DNA of 32,895 bases from Octopus sinensis (lineage: Eukaryota): assembly GCF_006345805.1 (NCBI RefSeq), contig NW_021832775.1, positions 1 through 32,895 of the forward strand. The letters are read 5' to 3'. The notes below the pieces were generated by a model that saw only the letters and a program-made list of their open reading frames with translations, did not search any database and was not told the origin of the DNA. A program made the position numbers and the translations under genes. How positions within the stretch are numbered: the stretch's first letter is position 1; every line of letters begins with the position of its first letter. Of this stretch, positions 991 to 31,924 are shown piece by piece.

Positions 991-1216
991 TTTATTAATC
1001 AATATAGGGTGGAAAAAATTCTGTAGAATTTCTTGCCACCAGCGGCCTAGTGGGAAAAAAATAAATAGTCATAGACCATTTATAAGTTCAACATCACAAT
1101 CAAGGAACGGCCATAATAGGCCATTCACCCACTAGAAATAACAGCCAAAGCTTCAACCGCAAAAATAACATTAATTCCGCAAACCAGGAGAAAATTAAAA
1201 AAACATTTACCCTGTA

Positions 1217-1323
1217 ATTCTTATACGATGCACCGTTGCATCTATTGTTTAATGGTTAAACTAACCTGATTAAATTAAATCAAGCCAATCTTCCATAGGC
1301 CCTTAGATTCGTCAGTAAGAAAT
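1217..1323 (-). ncRNA. Type I hammerhead ribozyme, unit 1 (core GAAA reads GCAA: mutated or sequencing error)
   Basis: Same fold as 4601-4707, but the plus strand reads CCGTTGCATCTA instead of CCGTTTCATCTA. Confidence 0.65.
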
Positions 1324-1706
1324 AGCCAGAAAGGAACAGATATTTTCACGAGGCACTTCTGTCCCTGCCTCGGCAATATCTGACCTAAAATTTTCAAATC
1401 ATCGCACTCGCGCCAAATTTATCGGCAGCAAATAAATATAAGCCGCCGATTCCATTACGGAATCAACCAGAAAATTCATAATTAATCAATATAGGGTGGC
1501 AAAAAAATTCTGTAGAATTTCTTTGCCACCAGCGGCCTAGTGGGGGAAAAAATTAAATAGTCATAGACCATTTATAAGTTCAACATCAAATCAAGGAACG
1601 GCCATAATAGGCCATTTACCAACTAGAAATAACAGCCAAAGCTTCAACCGCCAAATAACATTAATTCCGCAAACCAGGAGAAAATTAAAAAAACATTTAC
1701 CCTGTA

Positions 1707-1811
1707 ATTTCTTATACGATGCACCGTTTCATCTATGTTTAATGGTAAACTAACCTGATAAATTAAATCAAGCCAATCTTCCATAGGCCCTTAGATTCGT
1801 CAGTAAGAAAT
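1707..1811 (-). ncRNA. Type I hammerhead ribozyme, unit 2
   Basis: Minus strand reads ATTTCTTA-CTGACGA-ATCTA...TAGAT-GAAA-CGGTGCATCG-TA-TAAGAAAT: intact core and stems I-III. Confidence 0.88.
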
Positions 1812-2187
1812 AGCCAGATCGGAACAGATATTTTACGAGGCACTTCTGTCCTGCCTCGGCAATATCTGACCTAAAATTTTCAAATCATCGCACTCGCGCC
1901 AAATTATCGGCAGCAAATAAATATAAGCCGCCGATTCCATTACGGAATCAACCAGAAAGTTCATATTAATCAATATAGGGTGGCCAAAAAAAATTCTGTA
2001 GAATTTCTTTGCCACCAGCGGCCTAGTGGGAAAAAAATAAATAGTCATAGACCATTTATAAGTTCAACATCACATCAAGGAACGGCCATAATAGGCCATT
2101 CACCCACTAGAAATACAGCCAAAGCTTCAACCGCAAAATAACATAATTCCGCAAACCAGGAGAAAATTAAAAAAACATTACACTGTA

Positions 2188-2293
2188 ATTTCTTATACGA
2201 TGCACCGTTTCATCTATTGTTTAATGGTAAACTAACCTGATTAAATTAAATCAAGCCAATCTTCCATAGCCCTTAGATTCGTCAGTAAGAAAT
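2188..2293 (-). ncRNA. Type I hammerhead ribozyme, unit 3
   Basis: Same intact core and stems as unit 2. Confidence 0.88.
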
Positions 2294-2669
2294 AGCCAGA
2301 TAGGAACAGATATTTTCACGAGGCACTTCTGTCCCTGCCTCGGCAATATCTGACCTAAAATTTTCAAATCATCGCACTGGGCGCATTTATCGGCAGCAAA
2401 TAAATATAAGCCGCGATTCCATTACGGAATCAACCAGAAAATTCATAATTAATCAATATAGGGTGGCAAAAAATTCTGTAGAATTCTTTGCCACCAGCGG
2501 CCTAGTGGGAAAAAATTAAATAGTCATAGACCATTTATAAGTTCAACATCACAATCAAGGAACGGCCATAATAGGCCATTCACCCACTAGAAATAACAGC
2601 AAAGCTTCAACCGCAAAATAACATTAATTCCGCAAACCAGGAGAAAATTAAAAAAACATTTACCCTGTA

Positions 2670-2772
2670 ATTTCTTATACGATGCACCGTTTCATCTATG
2701 TTTAATGGTAAACTACCTGATTAAATAAATCAAGCCAATCTCCATAGGCCCTTAGATTCGTCAGTAAGAAAT
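2670..2772 (-). ncRNA. Type I hammerhead ribozyme, unit 4
   Basis: Same intact core and stems as unit 2. Confidence 0.88.
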
Positions 2773-3149
2773 AGCCAGATCGGAACAGATATTTTCACGA
2801 GGCACTTCTGTCCCTGCCTCGGCAATATCTGACCTAAAATTTTCAAATCATCGCACTCGCGCCAAATTTATCGGCAGCAAATAAATATAAGCCGCCGATT
2901 CCATTACGGAATCAACCAGAAAGTTCATAATTAATCAATATAGGGTGGCAAAAAATTCTGTAGAATTTCTTTGCCACCAGCGCCTAGTGGGAAAAAATTA
3001 AATAGTCATAGACCATTTATAGTTCAACATCACAATCAAGGAACGGCCATAATAGCCATTCACCCACTAGAAATAACACCCAAAGCTTCAACCGCAAAAT
3101 AACATTAATTCCGCAAACCAGGAGAAAATTAAAAAAACATTTACCTGTA

Positions 3150-3256
3150 ATTTCTTATACGATGCACCGTTTCATCTATTGTTTAATGGTAAACTAACCT
3201 GATTAAATTAAATCAAGCCAATCTTCCATAGGCCCTTAGATTCGTCAGTAAGAAAT
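3150..3256 (-). ncRNA. Type I hammerhead ribozyme, unit 5
   Basis: Same intact core and stems as unit 2. Confidence 0.88.
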
Positions 3257-3636
3257 AGCCAGATCGGAACAGATATTTTCACGAGGCACTTCTGTCCCTG
3301 CCTCGGCAATATCTGACCTAAAATTTTCAAATCATCGCACTCGCGCCAAATTTATCGGCAGCAAATAAATATAAACCGCCGCGATCCATACGGAATCAAC
3401 CAGAAAGTTCATAATTAATCAATATAGGGTGGCAAAAAATTCTGTAGAATTTCTTTGCCACCAGCGGCCTAGTGGGAAAAAATTAAATAGTCATAGACCA
3501 TTTATAAGTTCAACATCACAATCAAGGAACGGCCATAATAGGCCATTCACCCACTAGAAATAACAGCCAAGCTTCAACCGCAAAATAACATTAATTCCGC
3601 AAACCAGGAGAAAATTAAAAAAACATTTACCCTGTA

Positions 3637-3741
3637 ATTTCTTATACGATGCACCGTTTCATCTATTGTTAATGGTAAACTAACGTGATTAAATTAATCA
3701 AGCCAATCTTCCATAGGCCCTTAGATTCGTCAGTAAGAAAT
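3637..3741 (-). ncRNA. Type I hammerhead ribozyme, unit 6
   Basis: Same intact core and stems as unit 2. Confidence 0.88.
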
Positions 3742-4037
3742 AGCCAGATAGGAACATATTTTCACGAGGCACTTCTGTCCCTGCCTCGGCAATATCTGAC
3801 CTAAAATTTTCAAATCATCGCACTCGCGCCAAATTTATCGGCAGCAAATAAATAAAGCCGCCGATTCCATTACGGAATCAACCAGAAATTCATAATTAAT
3901 CAATATAGGGTGGCAAAAAATTCTGTAGAATTTCTTTGCCACCAGCGGCCTAGTGGGAAAAAATTAAATAGTCATAGACCATTTATAAGTTCAACATCAC
4001 AATCAAGGAACGGCCATAATAGGCCATTCACCCACTA

Positions 4038-4831
4038 TTAATGTTATTTTGCGGTTGAAGATTTGGCTGTTATTTCTAGTGGGTGAATGGCCTATTATGG
4101 CCGTTCCTTGATTGTGATGTTGAACTTATAATGGTCTATGGAAGATTGGCTTGATTTAATTTAATCAGTTAGTTTACCATTAAAAAACATAGATGAAACG
4201 GTGCACCGTATAAGAAATTACAGGGTAAATGTTTTTTTAATTTTCTCCTGGTTTGCGGAATTAATGTTATTTTGCGGTTGAAGCTTTGGCTGTTATTTCT
4301 AGTGGGTGAATGGCCTATTATGGCCGTTCCTTGATTGTGATGTTGAACTTATAAATGGTCTATGACTATTTAATTTTTTCCCACTAGGCCGCTGGTGGCA
4401 AAGAAATTCTACAGAATTTTTTTGCCACCCTATATTGATTAATTATGAATTTTCTGGTTGATTCCGTAATGGAATCGGCGGCTTATATTTATTTGCTGCC
4501 GATAAATTTGGCGCGAGTGCGATGATTTGAAAATTTTAGGTCAGATATTGCCGAGGCAGGGACAGAAGTGCCTCGTGAAAATATCTGTTCCGATCTGGCT
4601 ATTTCTTACTGACGAATCTAAGGGCCTATGGAAGATTGGCTTGATTTAATTTAATCAGGTTAGTTTACCATTAAACAATAGATGAAACGGTGCATCGTAT
4701 AAGAAATTACAGGGTAAATGTTTTTTTTAATTTTCTCCTGGTTTGCGGAATTAATGTTATTTTGCGGTTGAAGCTTTGGCTGTTATTTCTAGTGGGTGAA
4801 TGGCTTATTATGGCCGTTCCTTGATTGTGAT
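4038..4831 (+). mobile_element. Inverted arm of the 484-bp array (two segments, about 1.6 units in total)
   Basis: Reverse complement of the array unit, with an internal jump at CTATG 4136-4140; ends in (TA)n. Confidence 0.92.
4601..4707 (+). ncRNA. Type I hammerhead ribozyme in the inverted arm; predicted cleavage 3' of GUA (after 4699)
   Basis: Stem I ATTTCTTA(4601-08)/TAAGAAAT(4700-07); CTGACGA 4609-15; stem II ATCTA(4616-20)/TAGAT(4679-83); GAAA 4684-87; stem III A-CGGTGCATCG-T. Confidence 0.9.
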
Positions 4832-4853
4832 ATATATATATATATATGTAAGT

Positions 4854-5164
4854 GGAGGCGCAATGGCCCAGTGGTTAGGGTAGCGGACTCGCGGTCGTAG
4901 GCTCGCGGTTTCGATTCCTAGACCGGCGTTGTGAGTGTTTATTGAGCGAAGACACATAAAGCTCCACGAGGCTCCGGCAGGGTGGTGGTTGCGATCCCTG
5001 CTGTACACTTTCGCCACAACTTTCTCTCACTCTTTCTTCTGTTGGCCTGCTCGCTTAGCCAGCGAGGTGGCGTCATTTGAAGGCTAAAACACTGCGAAGC
5101 GCATTGTGACCAGCGATGTGTAGCTACATCTGATAGCCTGGTCGGTCACGGGGATCACGGTGAT
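4854..5164 (+). mobile_element. tRNA-derived SINE, family B, tail type 1
   Basis: A box (TGGCCCAGTGG) and B box (GTTTCGATTCC); matches 31626-31924 over its length. Confidence 0.85.
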
Positions 5165-5246
5165 GTATGTATAGAGAAAGAGAGAACGAGAGAGAGAGAG
5201 GTGTACTTGCATAGCAAGTGACTTGCTCTGAGATCGTGTGCTGGAA

Positions 5247-11645: not shown

Positions 11646-13217
11646 GTTTCTTTATTGGCCACACAGGGCTGCACACAGATGGGACAAGTTACAAGGTAGA
11701 GCTTTTCTTTTGGGGGATGAAGAGAACAAAAAGCAAAAGAAAAAAAAGGGAGTGGCGTAGGTTTTCGATCAAGAGGGATCGTAAAAGGGAAGAAAAGAAC
11801 AAAAAAAATGAATAAAATAAAAGGAATAAAAAGGAAAAAAAGAAAAGGAAAAGGAACAAAAGGAAAGAGAAATGAAAAAAGAAGAAAAAAGGGGAAGAGG
11901 AAAAAAAAGAACGATCAATAGGGATCGTGTATCACAGTGTTATGATATATGGTGTAAAGGGAAAGCAAGTAAGGTTTATCTGTGGGAAGAAAAGCCTACG
12001 AAAAAGACCACGGTAACCTTGGTCATATTGTTATATGTTACCACATTTGTTTGCAAGTGGGTAACCCTCTCTTTTCAATTTCTGGGTTCATAGGATTATG
12101 CTCAAGGTGGCTTCGTCATTCATACGTGCCATCCTTGCTACATTCACCCATCTTTTTAAAACATTCGCTAGACAAAACTTGCCTCTCTACTCTCACTTCT
12201 CTTTTCAAGTGGTACTTGAAGAAGTTGATGAGAGATTGACCAGAGAGGAAAGTGTTTGTCTCCAATCCTTTCAGACGCGTCCACCAGATACATTCTTTCG
12301 CCATAGCCACAAGGATGATGAAAATAGCTCTTCCTTCCCGTTTGAAGGAAGGAGGCGTGACAATATTGACGATAGACTCAGCTGATAAACCGACTCGTCC
12401 CACACGTGACAGCAGTTGTTCGACATAAGCCCACAGGTCGGAAATCGTTGGACACTGCACGAGTGCGTGCAGAACGGTTTCGTCGCTCTGACCGCATCTC
12501 GGGCAGGTCGGCCCCGTGTTTCTCGAGCCGTGTCTGTAGAGCTTATCCCGAACGGGTAGCGCTTCTCGGTAGCACTGCCAGGCCAGGGATCTCTGGAATT
12601 TGTCCATGGGCCCTGGCCCGAAAGTCGTCCTGAACAGGCGGGTCAGGTACTCCTCGTCGACGTCCAGGTTCGCCCCGAGCTCGTCGTCGTACCTCCCCTC
12701 CTCTCCTCCACTAATCCCCTATAGAATGCTTTGGTTGTGTTGAAGTCACTCAAGATCGACCCGGGACGGCAGAGTTGCTTGAGAGCAACGCGACACTCGC
12801 GGTGCAAATCGCCCTTCCTCGGCCTCTTTTTGATCCACGACTGCAGTTCGGTCATGGAGACGAGCTGCGGGAAAGCGTGCCTCACAAACGGCGACCACAC
12901 CTGTTCACCGTCGTCTACATAGAGCCAGAGATGTCGCAGTCTCAGCGCGTGTCTGCGCATCATCAACCACGGCATGCCCAGCCCTCCTTTTAGCGGGTGT
13001 TGACAGCAAACGGATCGCCTGAACATCGGGACGCATCCTTTCCACAAGAAGCGAAAGAGAATGCGTTGTAGTTTGATGATGGTAGGGTCGGGACAAGGTA
13101 CGACGTTCAGATGTAGTAGATGACGGACGCGATGTACGTGTTCGCCACCTCCGCCCGACCTTTTAGGGACAGTTTCCTTTCGGCCCATTGCCGGGCGAGA
13201 GTGACCACCCTACTCGT
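11645..13217 (-). mobile_element. 5'-truncated Tx1/L1-clade LINE (post-RT region, CCHC knuckle, pyrimidine-rich 3' UTR), frameshifted
   Basis: Peptides QWAERKLSLKGRAEVAN, RILFRFLWKG...PLKGGLGMP and WQCYREALPVRDKLYRHG...CPRCGQSDETVLHALVQCP...ECIWWTR. GC-rich island. The 3' end AATAAAGAAACT runs into (TATC)n. Confidence 0.88.
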
Positions 13218-17854: not shown

Positions 17855-18540
17855 CAGTAGTTTTATTTTTATAGCGTGCTTTCACTTCACTACCGAGCAC
17901 AGCTCTGTGTGCCTTGGGTATGTGCTGTGATTTGTTGTGATGCTCTGATGGTTATTGTATGGAAAGTGTTCTGCGTAGGATGTGTGCAGTGCCTAGTAGT
18001 GCAATTTTCTGTATGTTATATGTGTTTGTAAGTCCTGGTGTTTTTGTTATGTATTTGTCTGAATATTTTTTTATCATGCCTAATGCACCTACTATGATAG
18101 GAATTGTTTCTCTTTTCAGATTCCACATTCTAGTTACCTCTATTTCCAGGTCTTTGTATTTGAGAGTTTCTCCATTTCTTTTAGAGACACGTTGTCATCA
18201 GCCGGTATTGATACATCAATTAGAAAGCATTTTTTTTCTTCATGATCTCTGACAACTATATCTGGTCTGTTGGCCTTAATTTCTCTATCTGTGTGTATCG
18301 ACATATCCCAGAGTATGGTTGCTTTCTCGTTTTCTGTGACCTTTTCTGGTGTGTGCCTATACCATCTTTTTTCTGTTGTTATTCCATAATGTTGGCATAG
18401 CTTCCAATGTATGTAGGTTCCAACGCTGTTATGTCTGTGAATATATTCCTTCTTAGCCAAGACTGGGCAGCTAGAGATAATATGATTTATTGTTTCTTGT
18501 CCATCTCCACATATTCTGCAGTTACTTCTAATATTTCTTT
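17855..18540 (-). mobile_element. 5'-truncated R4/Dong-clade non-LTR retrotransposon (CCHC knuckle, PD-(D/E)xK RLE endonuclease, 3' UTR)
   Basis: CRICGDGQETINHIISSC, RHNSV, ILWD, NRPDIVV, IDVSIP and EKLS. One frameshift near 18160 continues YKDLEIEVTRMWNLK...IVGALG...QKIALLGTAHILRRTLSIQ* (stop 17952-54). (TAA)n on both sides. Confidence 0.92.
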
Positions 18541-18552
18541 TTATTATTATTA

Positions 18553-18619
<67 letters not shown>

Positions 18620-18634
18620 CATTATTATTATTAT
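18541..18634. repeat. (TTA)n microsatellite
   Basis: Direct read. Confidence 0.95.
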
Positions 18635-18635
18635 A

Positions 18636-19238
<603 letters not shown>

Positions 19239-22176: not shown

Positions 22177-22960
22177 GCAGTGAACTGGCAAAAACTTTAA
22201 CACTCCCGCCGAAATGCTTAGTAGTACGTTCTGAGTTCAAATTCCGCTGAGGTCGACTTTGCCTTTCATCCGTTCGGTGTCGATAAATTAAGTAGGAGTT
22301 ACGCACTGAGGTCGATGTAATCGACTTAATCCGTTTGTCTGTCATTGTTTGTCCTCTCTATGTGTAGCCCCTTGTGGGTAGTAAAGAAATAGGTATTTCG
22401 TCTGCTGTTACGTTCTGAGATCAAATTTCCCCGAGGTCGTCTTTGCCTTTCATCCTTTCCGAGTCGATAAATTAAGTACCAGTTAAGCATTGCGGTCGAT
22501 TTAATCGACTTAATCCGTTTGTCTTTTCTTGTTTGTCCCCTCTATGTTTAGCCCCTTGTGGGCAATAAAGAAATAAGAAACTTTATCACGCCGGGCGAAA
22601 TACTTAGCTGCATTTCGTCTGTCTAATTCCGACTTTGACACTCATCCTTTCGAGGTCGATAAATTAAGTACCAGTTGCGTACTGCGGTCGATCCACAAAA
22701 TGTCGGGCTTTATGACTAGAGTAGAAAAGTATATTTTAACACTTTATGCGGTGAGCTGGCAGAAATTTTAGCACGCCGAGCGAAATACTTAGCGGTATTT
22801 CGTCCGTGTTTACGTTCTGAGTTCAAATTCCGCCGAGATCGACTTTGACTCTTATCCTTTCAGGGTCGATAAATTAAGTACCAGTTGCGTACTGGGGTCG
22901 ATATTATCGACTGGCCCGCTTCCCTAAAATTTCGGTCCTTGTGTCTAGAATAGAAAAGAA
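22177..22960 (+). mobile_element. Cluster of four head-to-tail or nested family A SINE units
   Basis: Units 22177-22391, 22392-22575, 22576-~22730 and 22748-22960, each with GTCGATAAATTAAGTA; 16-bp direct repeat around the cluster. Confidence 0.88.
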
Positions 22961-26520: not shown

Positions 26521-26664
26521 TTCTCAAAGGAGAGGCCTATGGGATGGTCGAACAAGTTGTTTTGAGAAAATTTGGGTTAAATGCTTGACAACTCAGCGTT
26601 TTGCTCGTATGTATATGTACGTGTGTTTGCATGTGTGTGCGTGTCTGTGTGTGCGTGTGTGTGT

Positions 26665-27020
26665 GGAGGTGCAATGGCCCAGTGGTTAGGGCAGCGGACT
26701 CGCGGTTTCGATTCCCAGACCGGGTGTTGTGAGTGTTTATTGAGAGAAAACACTTAAAGGACAGCGAGGCAGGGGTGGTAGTGAACCCTGCTGTACGCTT
26801 TCACCACAACTTCCCCTCTCTCTTTCTTCTTGCTTCTGTTGTACCTGTATTTCAAAGGGCCAGCCTTGTCAAACTCTGTGTCATGCCGAATCTCAACGAG
26901 AACTACGTTAAAGGTTCTCGTGTCTGTGGAGTGCTCAGCCAGTTGCACGTTAATTTCACGAGCAGGCTGTTCCGTTGATCGGATCAACTGGAACACTCGA
27001 CGTTGTTATCGACGAGTGGC
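26665..27020 (+). mobile_element. tRNA-derived SINE, family B, tail type 2
   Basis: Head as at 4854 and 31626 (with a small deletion); 3' part matches the reverse complement of 28290-28490. Confidence 0.85.
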
Positions 27021-28289: not shown

Positions 28290-28581
28290 GCACTCCGTCG
28301 GTTACGACGACGAGGGTTCCGGTTGATCCGAATCAACGGAACAGCCTGCTCGTGAAATTAACGTGTAAGTGGCTGAGCACTCCACAGACACGTGTACCCT
28401 TAACGTAGTTCTCGGGGATATTCAGCGTGACACAGAGAGTGACAAGGCCGGCCCTTTGAAATACAGGTACAACAGAAACAGGAAGTAAGAGTGAGAGAAA
28501 GTTGTGGTGAAAGATCACAGCAGGGATCACCACCATCCCCTGCCGGAGACTCGTGGAGCTTTAGGTGTTTTCGCTCAATAA
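28290..28581 (-). mobile_element. SINE family B, tail type 2, 5'-truncated
   Basis: Reverse complement of ~26738-27020. Confidence 0.85.
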
Positions 28582-31598: not shown

Positions 31599-31625
31599 TA
31601 TATAAACATATGTATATCCAAACAT

Positions 31626-31924
31626 GGAGGCGCAATGGCCCAGTGGTTAGGGCAGCGGACTCGCGGTCGCAGGATCGCGGTTTCGATTCCCAGACCAGGC
31701 GTTGTGAGTGTTTATTGAGCGAAAACACCTAAAAGCTCCACGAGGCTCCGGCAGGGGGGGGGGTGATCCCTGCTGTACTCTTTCACCACTCTTTCTTCTG
31801 TTGGCCTGCTCGCTTAGCTAGCGGGGTGGCGTTATTCGAAGGCTAAAACAATGCGAACGCATTGTGACCAGCGATGTGTAGCTACATCTGATGGACTGGT
31901 CGGTCACGAGATGGTGATGGTGAT
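31626..31924 (+). mobile_element. tRNA-derived SINE, family B, tail type 1
   Basis: Matches 4854-5164. Confidence 0.85.

Follow-up and report, generated by a model that had tools for sequence, protein, structure and literature searches.

Results

Layout of the array

We examined a stretch of 32,895 nucleotides from Octopus sinensis (assembly GCF_006345805.1, contig NW_021832775.1, positions 1 to 32,895 of the forward strand; below, the window). At 994-4831 it contains a non-coding repeat with type I hammerhead ribozymes, probably a copy of a retrozyme, that is, of a non-autonomous retroelement with a self-cleaving RNA. Tandem-repeat analysis of the window placed the array proper at 994-4037, with 6.3 copies of a 481-bp period and 95% matches. 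Its six full units are 487, 484, 483, 482, 484 and 481 bp long, with an additional partial unit of 143 bp. An inverted arm of about 1.6 units (4038-4831), with an internal jump at 4140/4141, adjoins it; the hammerhead is on the minus strand in the array and on the plus strand in the inverted arm. A preliminary description of this DNA, made from its letters alone, had proposed six tandem units plus an inverted arm with (TA)n on both sides. This layout stands, with units of 481-487 bp and an array start at 994, and equal (AT)9 tracts do adjoin each end. The parts are as follows.

973-990, no strand: left (AT)9 tract, possible target-site duplication, equal in length to the right tract
994-4037, minus strand: left arm, six full units and the 143-bp partial unit; 3' end of the hammerhead strand at 994
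4037-4038, no strand: head-to-head junction of the 5' ends of the arms, at unit places equal to 4790 and 4751; no mirror fold-back (14 of 40 letters)
4038-4831, plus strand: right arm, about 1.6 units; 3' end of the hammerhead strand at 4831
4136-4141, plus strand: internal jump from unit place 4364 to 4631, with 5-nt microhomology; the 5' half of one hammerhead is lost
4830-4847, no strand: right (AT)9 tract, possible target-site duplication

Judged by the hammerhead strand, both arms are directed outward. With the copy at 4346-4831 as coordinate system, their 3' ends fall at unit places 4443 and 4831, and their joined 5' ends at 4790 (left) and 4751 (right). The cut site is 4699 in the same coordinates and coincides with neither outer end; therefore, neither primer end is a cleaved end. 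Between them the arms traverse all eight cut sites or their remains. Two outward 3' ends, off the cut site and beside (AT)9, fit the footprint expected of Penelope-type two-strand priming. The equal lengths of the (AT)9 tracts suggest a target duplication, though such equality is weak proof inside a microsatellite.

Two further observations concern the arms. The same hexamer, which occurs four times per unit, precedes both outer 3' ends by 3-5 nt (4435-4443, the equivalent of 994, and 4821-4831); spotted post hoc, it is a possible start-site signal. Due to the head-to-head arrangement (3240-4831), read-through from either flank would yield long double-stranded RNA.

The hammerhead ribozyme and the anatomy of the unit

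A hammerhead descriptor (CUGANGA, GAAA, a UH site and three helices) matched five of the six tandem units on the minus strand and the inverted arm once on the plus strand. Elsewhere in the window it had no match, and neither did it match any of 2000 shuffled units. The ribozyme parts proposed beforehand (CUGACGA/GAAA core, GUA site, 8-bp stem I) were all recovered, together with a stem II of 5 bp and a stem III of 4 bp. One hammerhead per full unit had been claimed as well, which is correct for five units out of six; in unit 1, as assembled, GCAA replaces GAAA and one base of stem I is missing. Cut sites said to lie exactly one unit apart are in fact spaced by 480-491 nt, owing to indels. The hammerheads and the second long hairpin of the unit are listed here.

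1217-1323, minus strand: hammerhead of unit 1, damaged as assembled
1707-1811, minus strand: type I hammerhead matching the descriptor, cut after 1715
2188-2293, minus strand: type I hammerhead matching the descriptor, cut after 2196
2670-2772, minus strand: type I hammerhead matching the descriptor, cut after 2678
3150-3256, minus strand: type I hammerhead matching the descriptor, cut after 3158
3637-3741, minus strand: type I hammerhead matching the descriptor, cut after 3645
4601-4707, plus strand: type I hammerhead of the inverted arm, cut after 4699; stem I 4601-4608/4700-4707, core 4609-4615 and 4684-4687, stem II 4616-4620/4679-4683 closed by a long hairpin at 4629-4670
4687-4698, plus strand: helix III of the arm hammerhead, with a near-palindromic loop
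4394-4429, plus strand: a further long hairpin, with one pair (4396/4427) of which each partner varies across the family

Helix II is closed by an internal loop and the long hairpin, an insert of about 58 nt which separates the halves of the core by 68 nt. Rfam, whose Hammerhead_1 model had been proposed earlier as a check, returned no hammerhead, neither at the gathering score (0 matches) nor among the nine matches at E<=10, probably owing to the long insert in helix II. No other ribozyme family was found in Rfam at E<=10, the same search having failed on the sense hammerhead as well. Being short and self-complementary (predicted self-duplex of -17.5 kcal/mol), helix III suits a double hammerhead; a weak helix III and dimeric cleavage have been described in PMC7761336. 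One copy (4200-4210) carries C for T, which makes its helix III perfectly palindromic; it lies within the half hammerhead left by the internal jump.

The unit has a GC content of 0.37. Folded as a circle it has a predicted minimum free energy of -136 to -148 kcal/mol, with z scores of -4.2 and -5.2 (two of five monomers, 30 shuffles each), and the opposite strand is also highly paired (z -4.4 and -4.8). The predicted circle fold is branched, not rod-like. Three hairpins named in the preliminary description are all present in the sequence, and two of them form in this fold. The exact CUGANGA core occurs once on the sense strand of the unit and not at all on the opposite strand.

That the unit is non-coding, as proposed, is borne out by its open reading frames (ORFs): the four ATG-initiated ones of at least 30 amino acids comprise 46-71 residues, each confined to one unit. 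Neither the array nor the sequence next to it contains an ORF for a reverse transcriptase (RT) with a GIY-YIG endonuclease; the two zf-RVT fragments are 7 and 13 kb distant. Exact A box, B box and octamer motifs of RNA polymerase III promoters are absent from the unit. The exact hammerhead motif had no match in metagenome contigs and none in viral contigs. A looser motif with a short helix II hit 17 metagenome loci; stem I was formed in none of the 17 (at most 2 bp), and we took these hits as chance.

An abundant and varied repeat family

Parts of the stretch are present in 20 of 24 listed public sequencing runs (nine studies, four organism codes), of which the best-matching one may derive from the source sample. 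We compared one unit with contigs of four of the 20 positive runs (X1, X5, X12 and X14); assembled contigs of this kind are uninformative on ends, strand and level. The unit matched 6946 contigs in X1 and 14256 in X5, with identities from below 90% to over 99%, and 25 of its 30 bins were covered in both, the other five being masked as repeats. Summed depth was 0.1-4.5 million, which gives no copy number, yet fits only an abundant, varied repeat. Hence the unit is an abundant and varied genomic repeat family, and abundance of the X1 and X5 type is seen in runs guessed to be DNA. No RNA runs are among those listed as holding the stretch. In X12 and X14, whose RNA nature is a guess, 25 of 30 bins are covered and some contigs bridge the cut site; these two runs were not used as evidence of expression or circles. 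Diverged subfamilies are suggested by longer contigs of X12 and X1 on 4623-4755, with 13 and 18 differing letters, respectively, per approximately 100-130 bases.

The contigs also bear on the possibility that the unit is the pseudo-long terminal repeat (pseudo-LTR) of an autonomous Penelope-like element (PLE) and the locus a 5'-truncated tandem and inverted insertion whose ORF is gone. According to PMC8557442, PLEs carry type I hammerheads in their pseudo-LTRs, occur in tandem and inverted forms and are found at (TA)n targets, and 24 of 57 Xenopus retrozyme families are reported to match transposable elements, nearly all of them PLE ends (bioRxiv 10.64898/2026.07.22.740005). In our comparison, however, the share of matched sequence continuing into unlike sequence was 0 in X1 and X5 and 0 to 0.06 over the four runs, and no dominant exit was seen among the 24 of 159 loose ends that were inspected. 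The array moreover consists of six pure repeats with no ORF, and its hammerhead has three helices, as opposed to the minimal type described for PLEs in PMC7761336. We regard a pseudo-LTR as a very unlikely source of this array.

Variation within the family was evaluated on 40 of the 74 variant rows, throughout. None of these variants falls on the 11 invariant positions of the hammerhead core, and position N7 varies at about 48%. When the hammerhead is enforced in the fold, pairing is preserved by 17 of the 23 variants at paired positions and lost through the other six. Both partners vary in three pairs (stem I 4604/4704, stem II 4620/4679 and hairpin 4396/4427; P ~0.04 by random placing, the variants being unphased). 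Invariance of the core and two-sided changes in the stems point to selection acting on the ribozyme.

A highly paired circular fold (z -4.2 and -5.2) and high heterogeneity of the family are also compatible with an integrated infectious viroid-like RNA, replicating from RNA to RNA. Such an origin is nevertheless extremely improbable: the opposite strand has no hammerhead core, the fold is branched rather than rod-like, the exact motif is unmatched in viral and metagenome contigs, and the unit forms a genomic array with flanks and is abundant in runs guessed to be DNA. The label "viroid-like", given to the element in the preliminary description, overstates the case for a unit that is an abundant genomic repeat with a hammerhead on one strand.

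Clonality and age of the copies

Fifteen sites of the unit are variable in the family. In the six tandem copies, 88 of the corresponding 90 cells hold the letter of the inverted arm; the remaining two are gaps, and no other letter occurs. At six of the 15 sites the letter of the locus is the minority one in X1 and X5, where the alternative reaches 65-97%. The presence of this rare variant in all copies indicates that the locus is clonal and young, a recent insertion. Compared with the arm copy, the six tandem copies contain 22 substitutions in 2870 bases and 49 indel events. Homopolymer runs hold 42 of the 49 indel events, a pattern resembling long-read errors, and most differences between copies look like errors of this kind. 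Three linked single-base differences (alignment columns 75, 350 and 492) recur among the copies in non-periodic order, over 994-4037 and 4444-4831. They could originate in two templates, in a donor array or in polishing.

The noisy sequence indicated by the homopolymer indels would also agree with a real family whose copy number or head-to-head joint at this locus is an assembly or long-read chimera, and the joints listed for the runs do not include the junctions of the locus. Several traits speak against this. A simple fold-back artefact is excluded, the right arm mirroring the left in 14 of 40 letters. Furthermore, the two flanks differ, the rare variant is common to both arms, and (AT)9 is present at both ends. 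A chimera is, in our judgement, highly doubtful.

A-to-G excess

Using the X1/X5 majority, 33 of the 40 variants were polarised; the seven with a share below 0.02 were dropped. On the hammerhead strand we counted 15 A>G against 5 T>C changes (P 0.002, runs and sites not being independent). A 5' U or A neighbour is present at 13 of the 15 A>G sites (hand count; P 0.07, a weak trend), and three of the sites are A-C mismatches of the fold. Twelve of the 15 A>G changes occupy paired sites; there, the structure tolerates A>G or gains stability from it, as it usually does not with T>C. Unpaired sites have three A>G against one T>C (P 0.15), and ADAR action and structural selection are not separable there.

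In coleoids, adenosine-to-inosine (A-to-I) editing is described as widely directed at repeats (PMC9068888). The A-to-G excess hints at ADAR edits written back into the genome; structural selection explains it equally well. In its full form, this idea would have an abundant circular-RNA retroelement of octopods form double-stranded circles, which ADAR edits and which are then reverse-transcribed into the germ line. A-to-I changes would thereby become heritable A-to-G changes driving the evolution of the family, and the present locus would record directly, as a fossil, how Penelope copied a circle by internal priming on two strands. We consider this whole scenario quite unlikely. Literature searches on retrozymes with ADAR, on twin priming with Penelope and on retrotransposition of edited RNA gave nothing relevant, as judged from result lists.

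Other repeats in the window

The window is dense in microsatellites. Directly after the right (AT)9 tract begins a repeat resembling a short interspersed element (SINE), at 4848-5170, with A- and B-box-like motifs; presumably it resembles octopus SINEs. Further SINE-like copies are located at 26663-26830, 28477-28581 and 31625-31908 (78-88% identity). Decayed fragments similar to long interspersed elements, with zf-RVT matches, were found on the minus strand at 12116-13209 and 18140-18658. For the zf-RVT fragment at 12119-12718, a single named relative appeared among ten matches, a protein of Argonauta hians with 61% identity; taken together with the many microsatellites, this match indicates an octopod host. 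A 184-bp unit at 22225-22575 (1.9 copies, 87% matches) is probably a tandem pair of another short repeat. No tRNA genes were found in the window.

Discussion

Origin of the locus

We have described a clonal array whose two arms end away from the cut site, in a family with an invariant ribozyme core. Probably, a non-autonomous non-LTR retrozyme inserted here, in an octopod-like genome, not long ago and by Penelope-type two-strand copying. By analogy with known families, multimeric transcripts would cleave themselves, the self-complementary helix III probably pairing hammerheads into double ones, and the resulting monomers of about 485 nt would be ligated to circles. The structure of the locus suggests that a Penelope-like RT-endonuclease then made nicks in the two strands of an (AT)n tract, and that reverse transcription was primed at two places inside a circular or multimeric template. 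One cDNA would have reached 6.3 units and the other about 1.6 units, with one microhomology jump, before their far ends were joined. Such a course would leave head-to-head arms with both 3' ends outward, between two (AT)9 tracts.

Animal retrozymes are described as transcribed into multimers which self-cleave and accumulate as circles, with PLEs proposed as their movers (PMC7229834). A Penelope-like protein is reported to cut and extend both strands at AT-rich DNA and to start reverse transcription internally (PMC11167929), PLEs leave inverted 5'-truncated copies and have (TA)n targets (PMC8557442), and Octopus vulgaris is credited with 30 recently active Penelope families (PMC13282606). The retrozyme reading of the preliminary description is upheld as far as the anatomy of animal non-LTR retrozymes is concerned, and the ends and clonality of the copies fit a Penelope-type RT working on an internally primed, repeating template. 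Its rolling-circle origin agrees with the Penelope-type ends and less well with the recurring differences discussed below.

Several results weigh against this account. The active fold is predicted to lie 3.8 kcal/mol above the minimum of the circle, with a probability of 0.002 (0.011 when taken alone). The three linked recurring differences are not simply given by one monomeric circle. When the fold is left unconstrained, the pair survives in 13 of 23 paired variants, compared with an expectation of 11.6 given the same types of change; due to this flat result, it is the ribozyme and a single hairpin, rather than the fold as a whole, that carry the support for selection. A variant in stem II (4683) disrupts its pair unless a partner change is present among the remaining 34 rows. 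Of nine Xenopus retrozyme dimers, only one is reported to cleave in vitro (bioRxiv 10.64898/2026.07.22.740005). Finally, the two internal junctions of the locus are absent among the joints listed for the four sequencing runs, and places 4820-4900 are masked as repeats. Because the junctions are not among the listed joints and the right one is unreadable, the layout rests on one assembly alone.

Alternatively, the template of the same element might have been a multimeric transcript, linear and uncleaved, from a donor array, or the array might have grown locally as a satellite following a short insertion, the hammerhead being weak or a passenger and no circle being involved. The linked differences and the weak predicted active fold are in line with this. 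So is work on a PLE in vitro, in which uncleaved RNA is the main substrate and hammerhead mutants still insert (PMC11167929). In unit coordinates, only about 41 nt separate the 5' end of the left arm from the right arm's start site, as the twin-priming model would give on a linear RNA. On the other hand, the invariant core and the two-sided stem changes indicate selection on the ribozyme, and circles were obtained from every invertebrate retrozyme tested in PMC7229834 (coral and mussel). On balance a linear template or satellite growth seems unlikely to us, and we favour an insertion of a retrozyme that would cleave and circularise.

Comparison with known systems

Literature searches, judged from their result lists and with Repbase, Dfam, the Zenodo library of PMC13282606 and the bioRxiv supplements outside their scope, returned no cephalopod hammerhead or retrozyme. 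The main text of PMC7229834 names no cephalopod, and the sampling described in bioRxiv 10.64898/2026.07.22.740005 includes no mollusc. The octopus repeat is apparently an unreported family of a known class, the animal non-LTR retrozymes, and may stand in repeat libraries under another name. It extends this class rather than opens a new one, with three additions. Firstly, it is an apparently unreported, abundant octopod hammerhead repeat, missed by Rfam and probably by descriptors with short helices. Secondly, its two ends, its (AT)9 tracts and its internal jump support, at the level of one locus, the hypothesis that Penelope-like proteins may copy retrozyme RNA from internal starts. Thirdly, it suggests a link, open to testing, from the heavy editing of coleoid repeat RNA to sequence changes that are inherited.

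The closest counterparts are the metazoan non-LTR retrozymes of coral, Mytilus galloprovincialis and axolotl described in PMC7229834. Both groups are non-coding tandem repeats with one type I hammerhead per unit, a GC content below 45% (37% here), a highly paired circular fold and a heterogeneous, high-copy family. They differ in unit length (about 485 bp here, approximately 170-400 nt there), in the ~58-nt helix II hairpin insert of the octopus unit and in its head-to-head copy with two outward 3' ends; circles have been demonstrated for theirs and are predicted here. No comparably long helix II appears in the available text of PMC3088659. Among vertebrate non-LTR retrozymes, bioRxiv 10.64898/2026.07.22.740005 uses as working definition a minimum of two successive units that have a complete type I hammerhead; the octopus array has five consecutive intact ones. 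Its unit length is within their range of 51-972 bp, and 6-7 units are typical there (75% of families have at most seven). The unit had been called long for animal retrozymes, which is true of the 170-400 nt range in PMC7229834 and not of this wider range, nor of the pDo500 satellite of Dolichopoda crickets, with about 500 bp (PMC2837043).

Compared by features, not by sequence, pDo500 as described in PMC2837043 also has a type I hammerhead with a G-U pair in stem III, compensatory changes in stems I and II and a proposed double hammerhead. Its ribozyme is compact (49 nt, against ~107 nt here), and it was described as a satellite. With PLEs, as presented in PMC8557442 and PMC11167929, the octopus locus shares the type I hammerhead, the tandem and inverted 5'-truncated layout, the AT-rich or (TA)n target and an internal RT start away from the cut site. 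Unlike them, it contains no RT or GIY-YIG ORF, has three full helices and is a pure multimer of one unit. The array thus displays the testable features of animal non-LTR retrozymes and lacks those of autonomous PLEs and of viroids.

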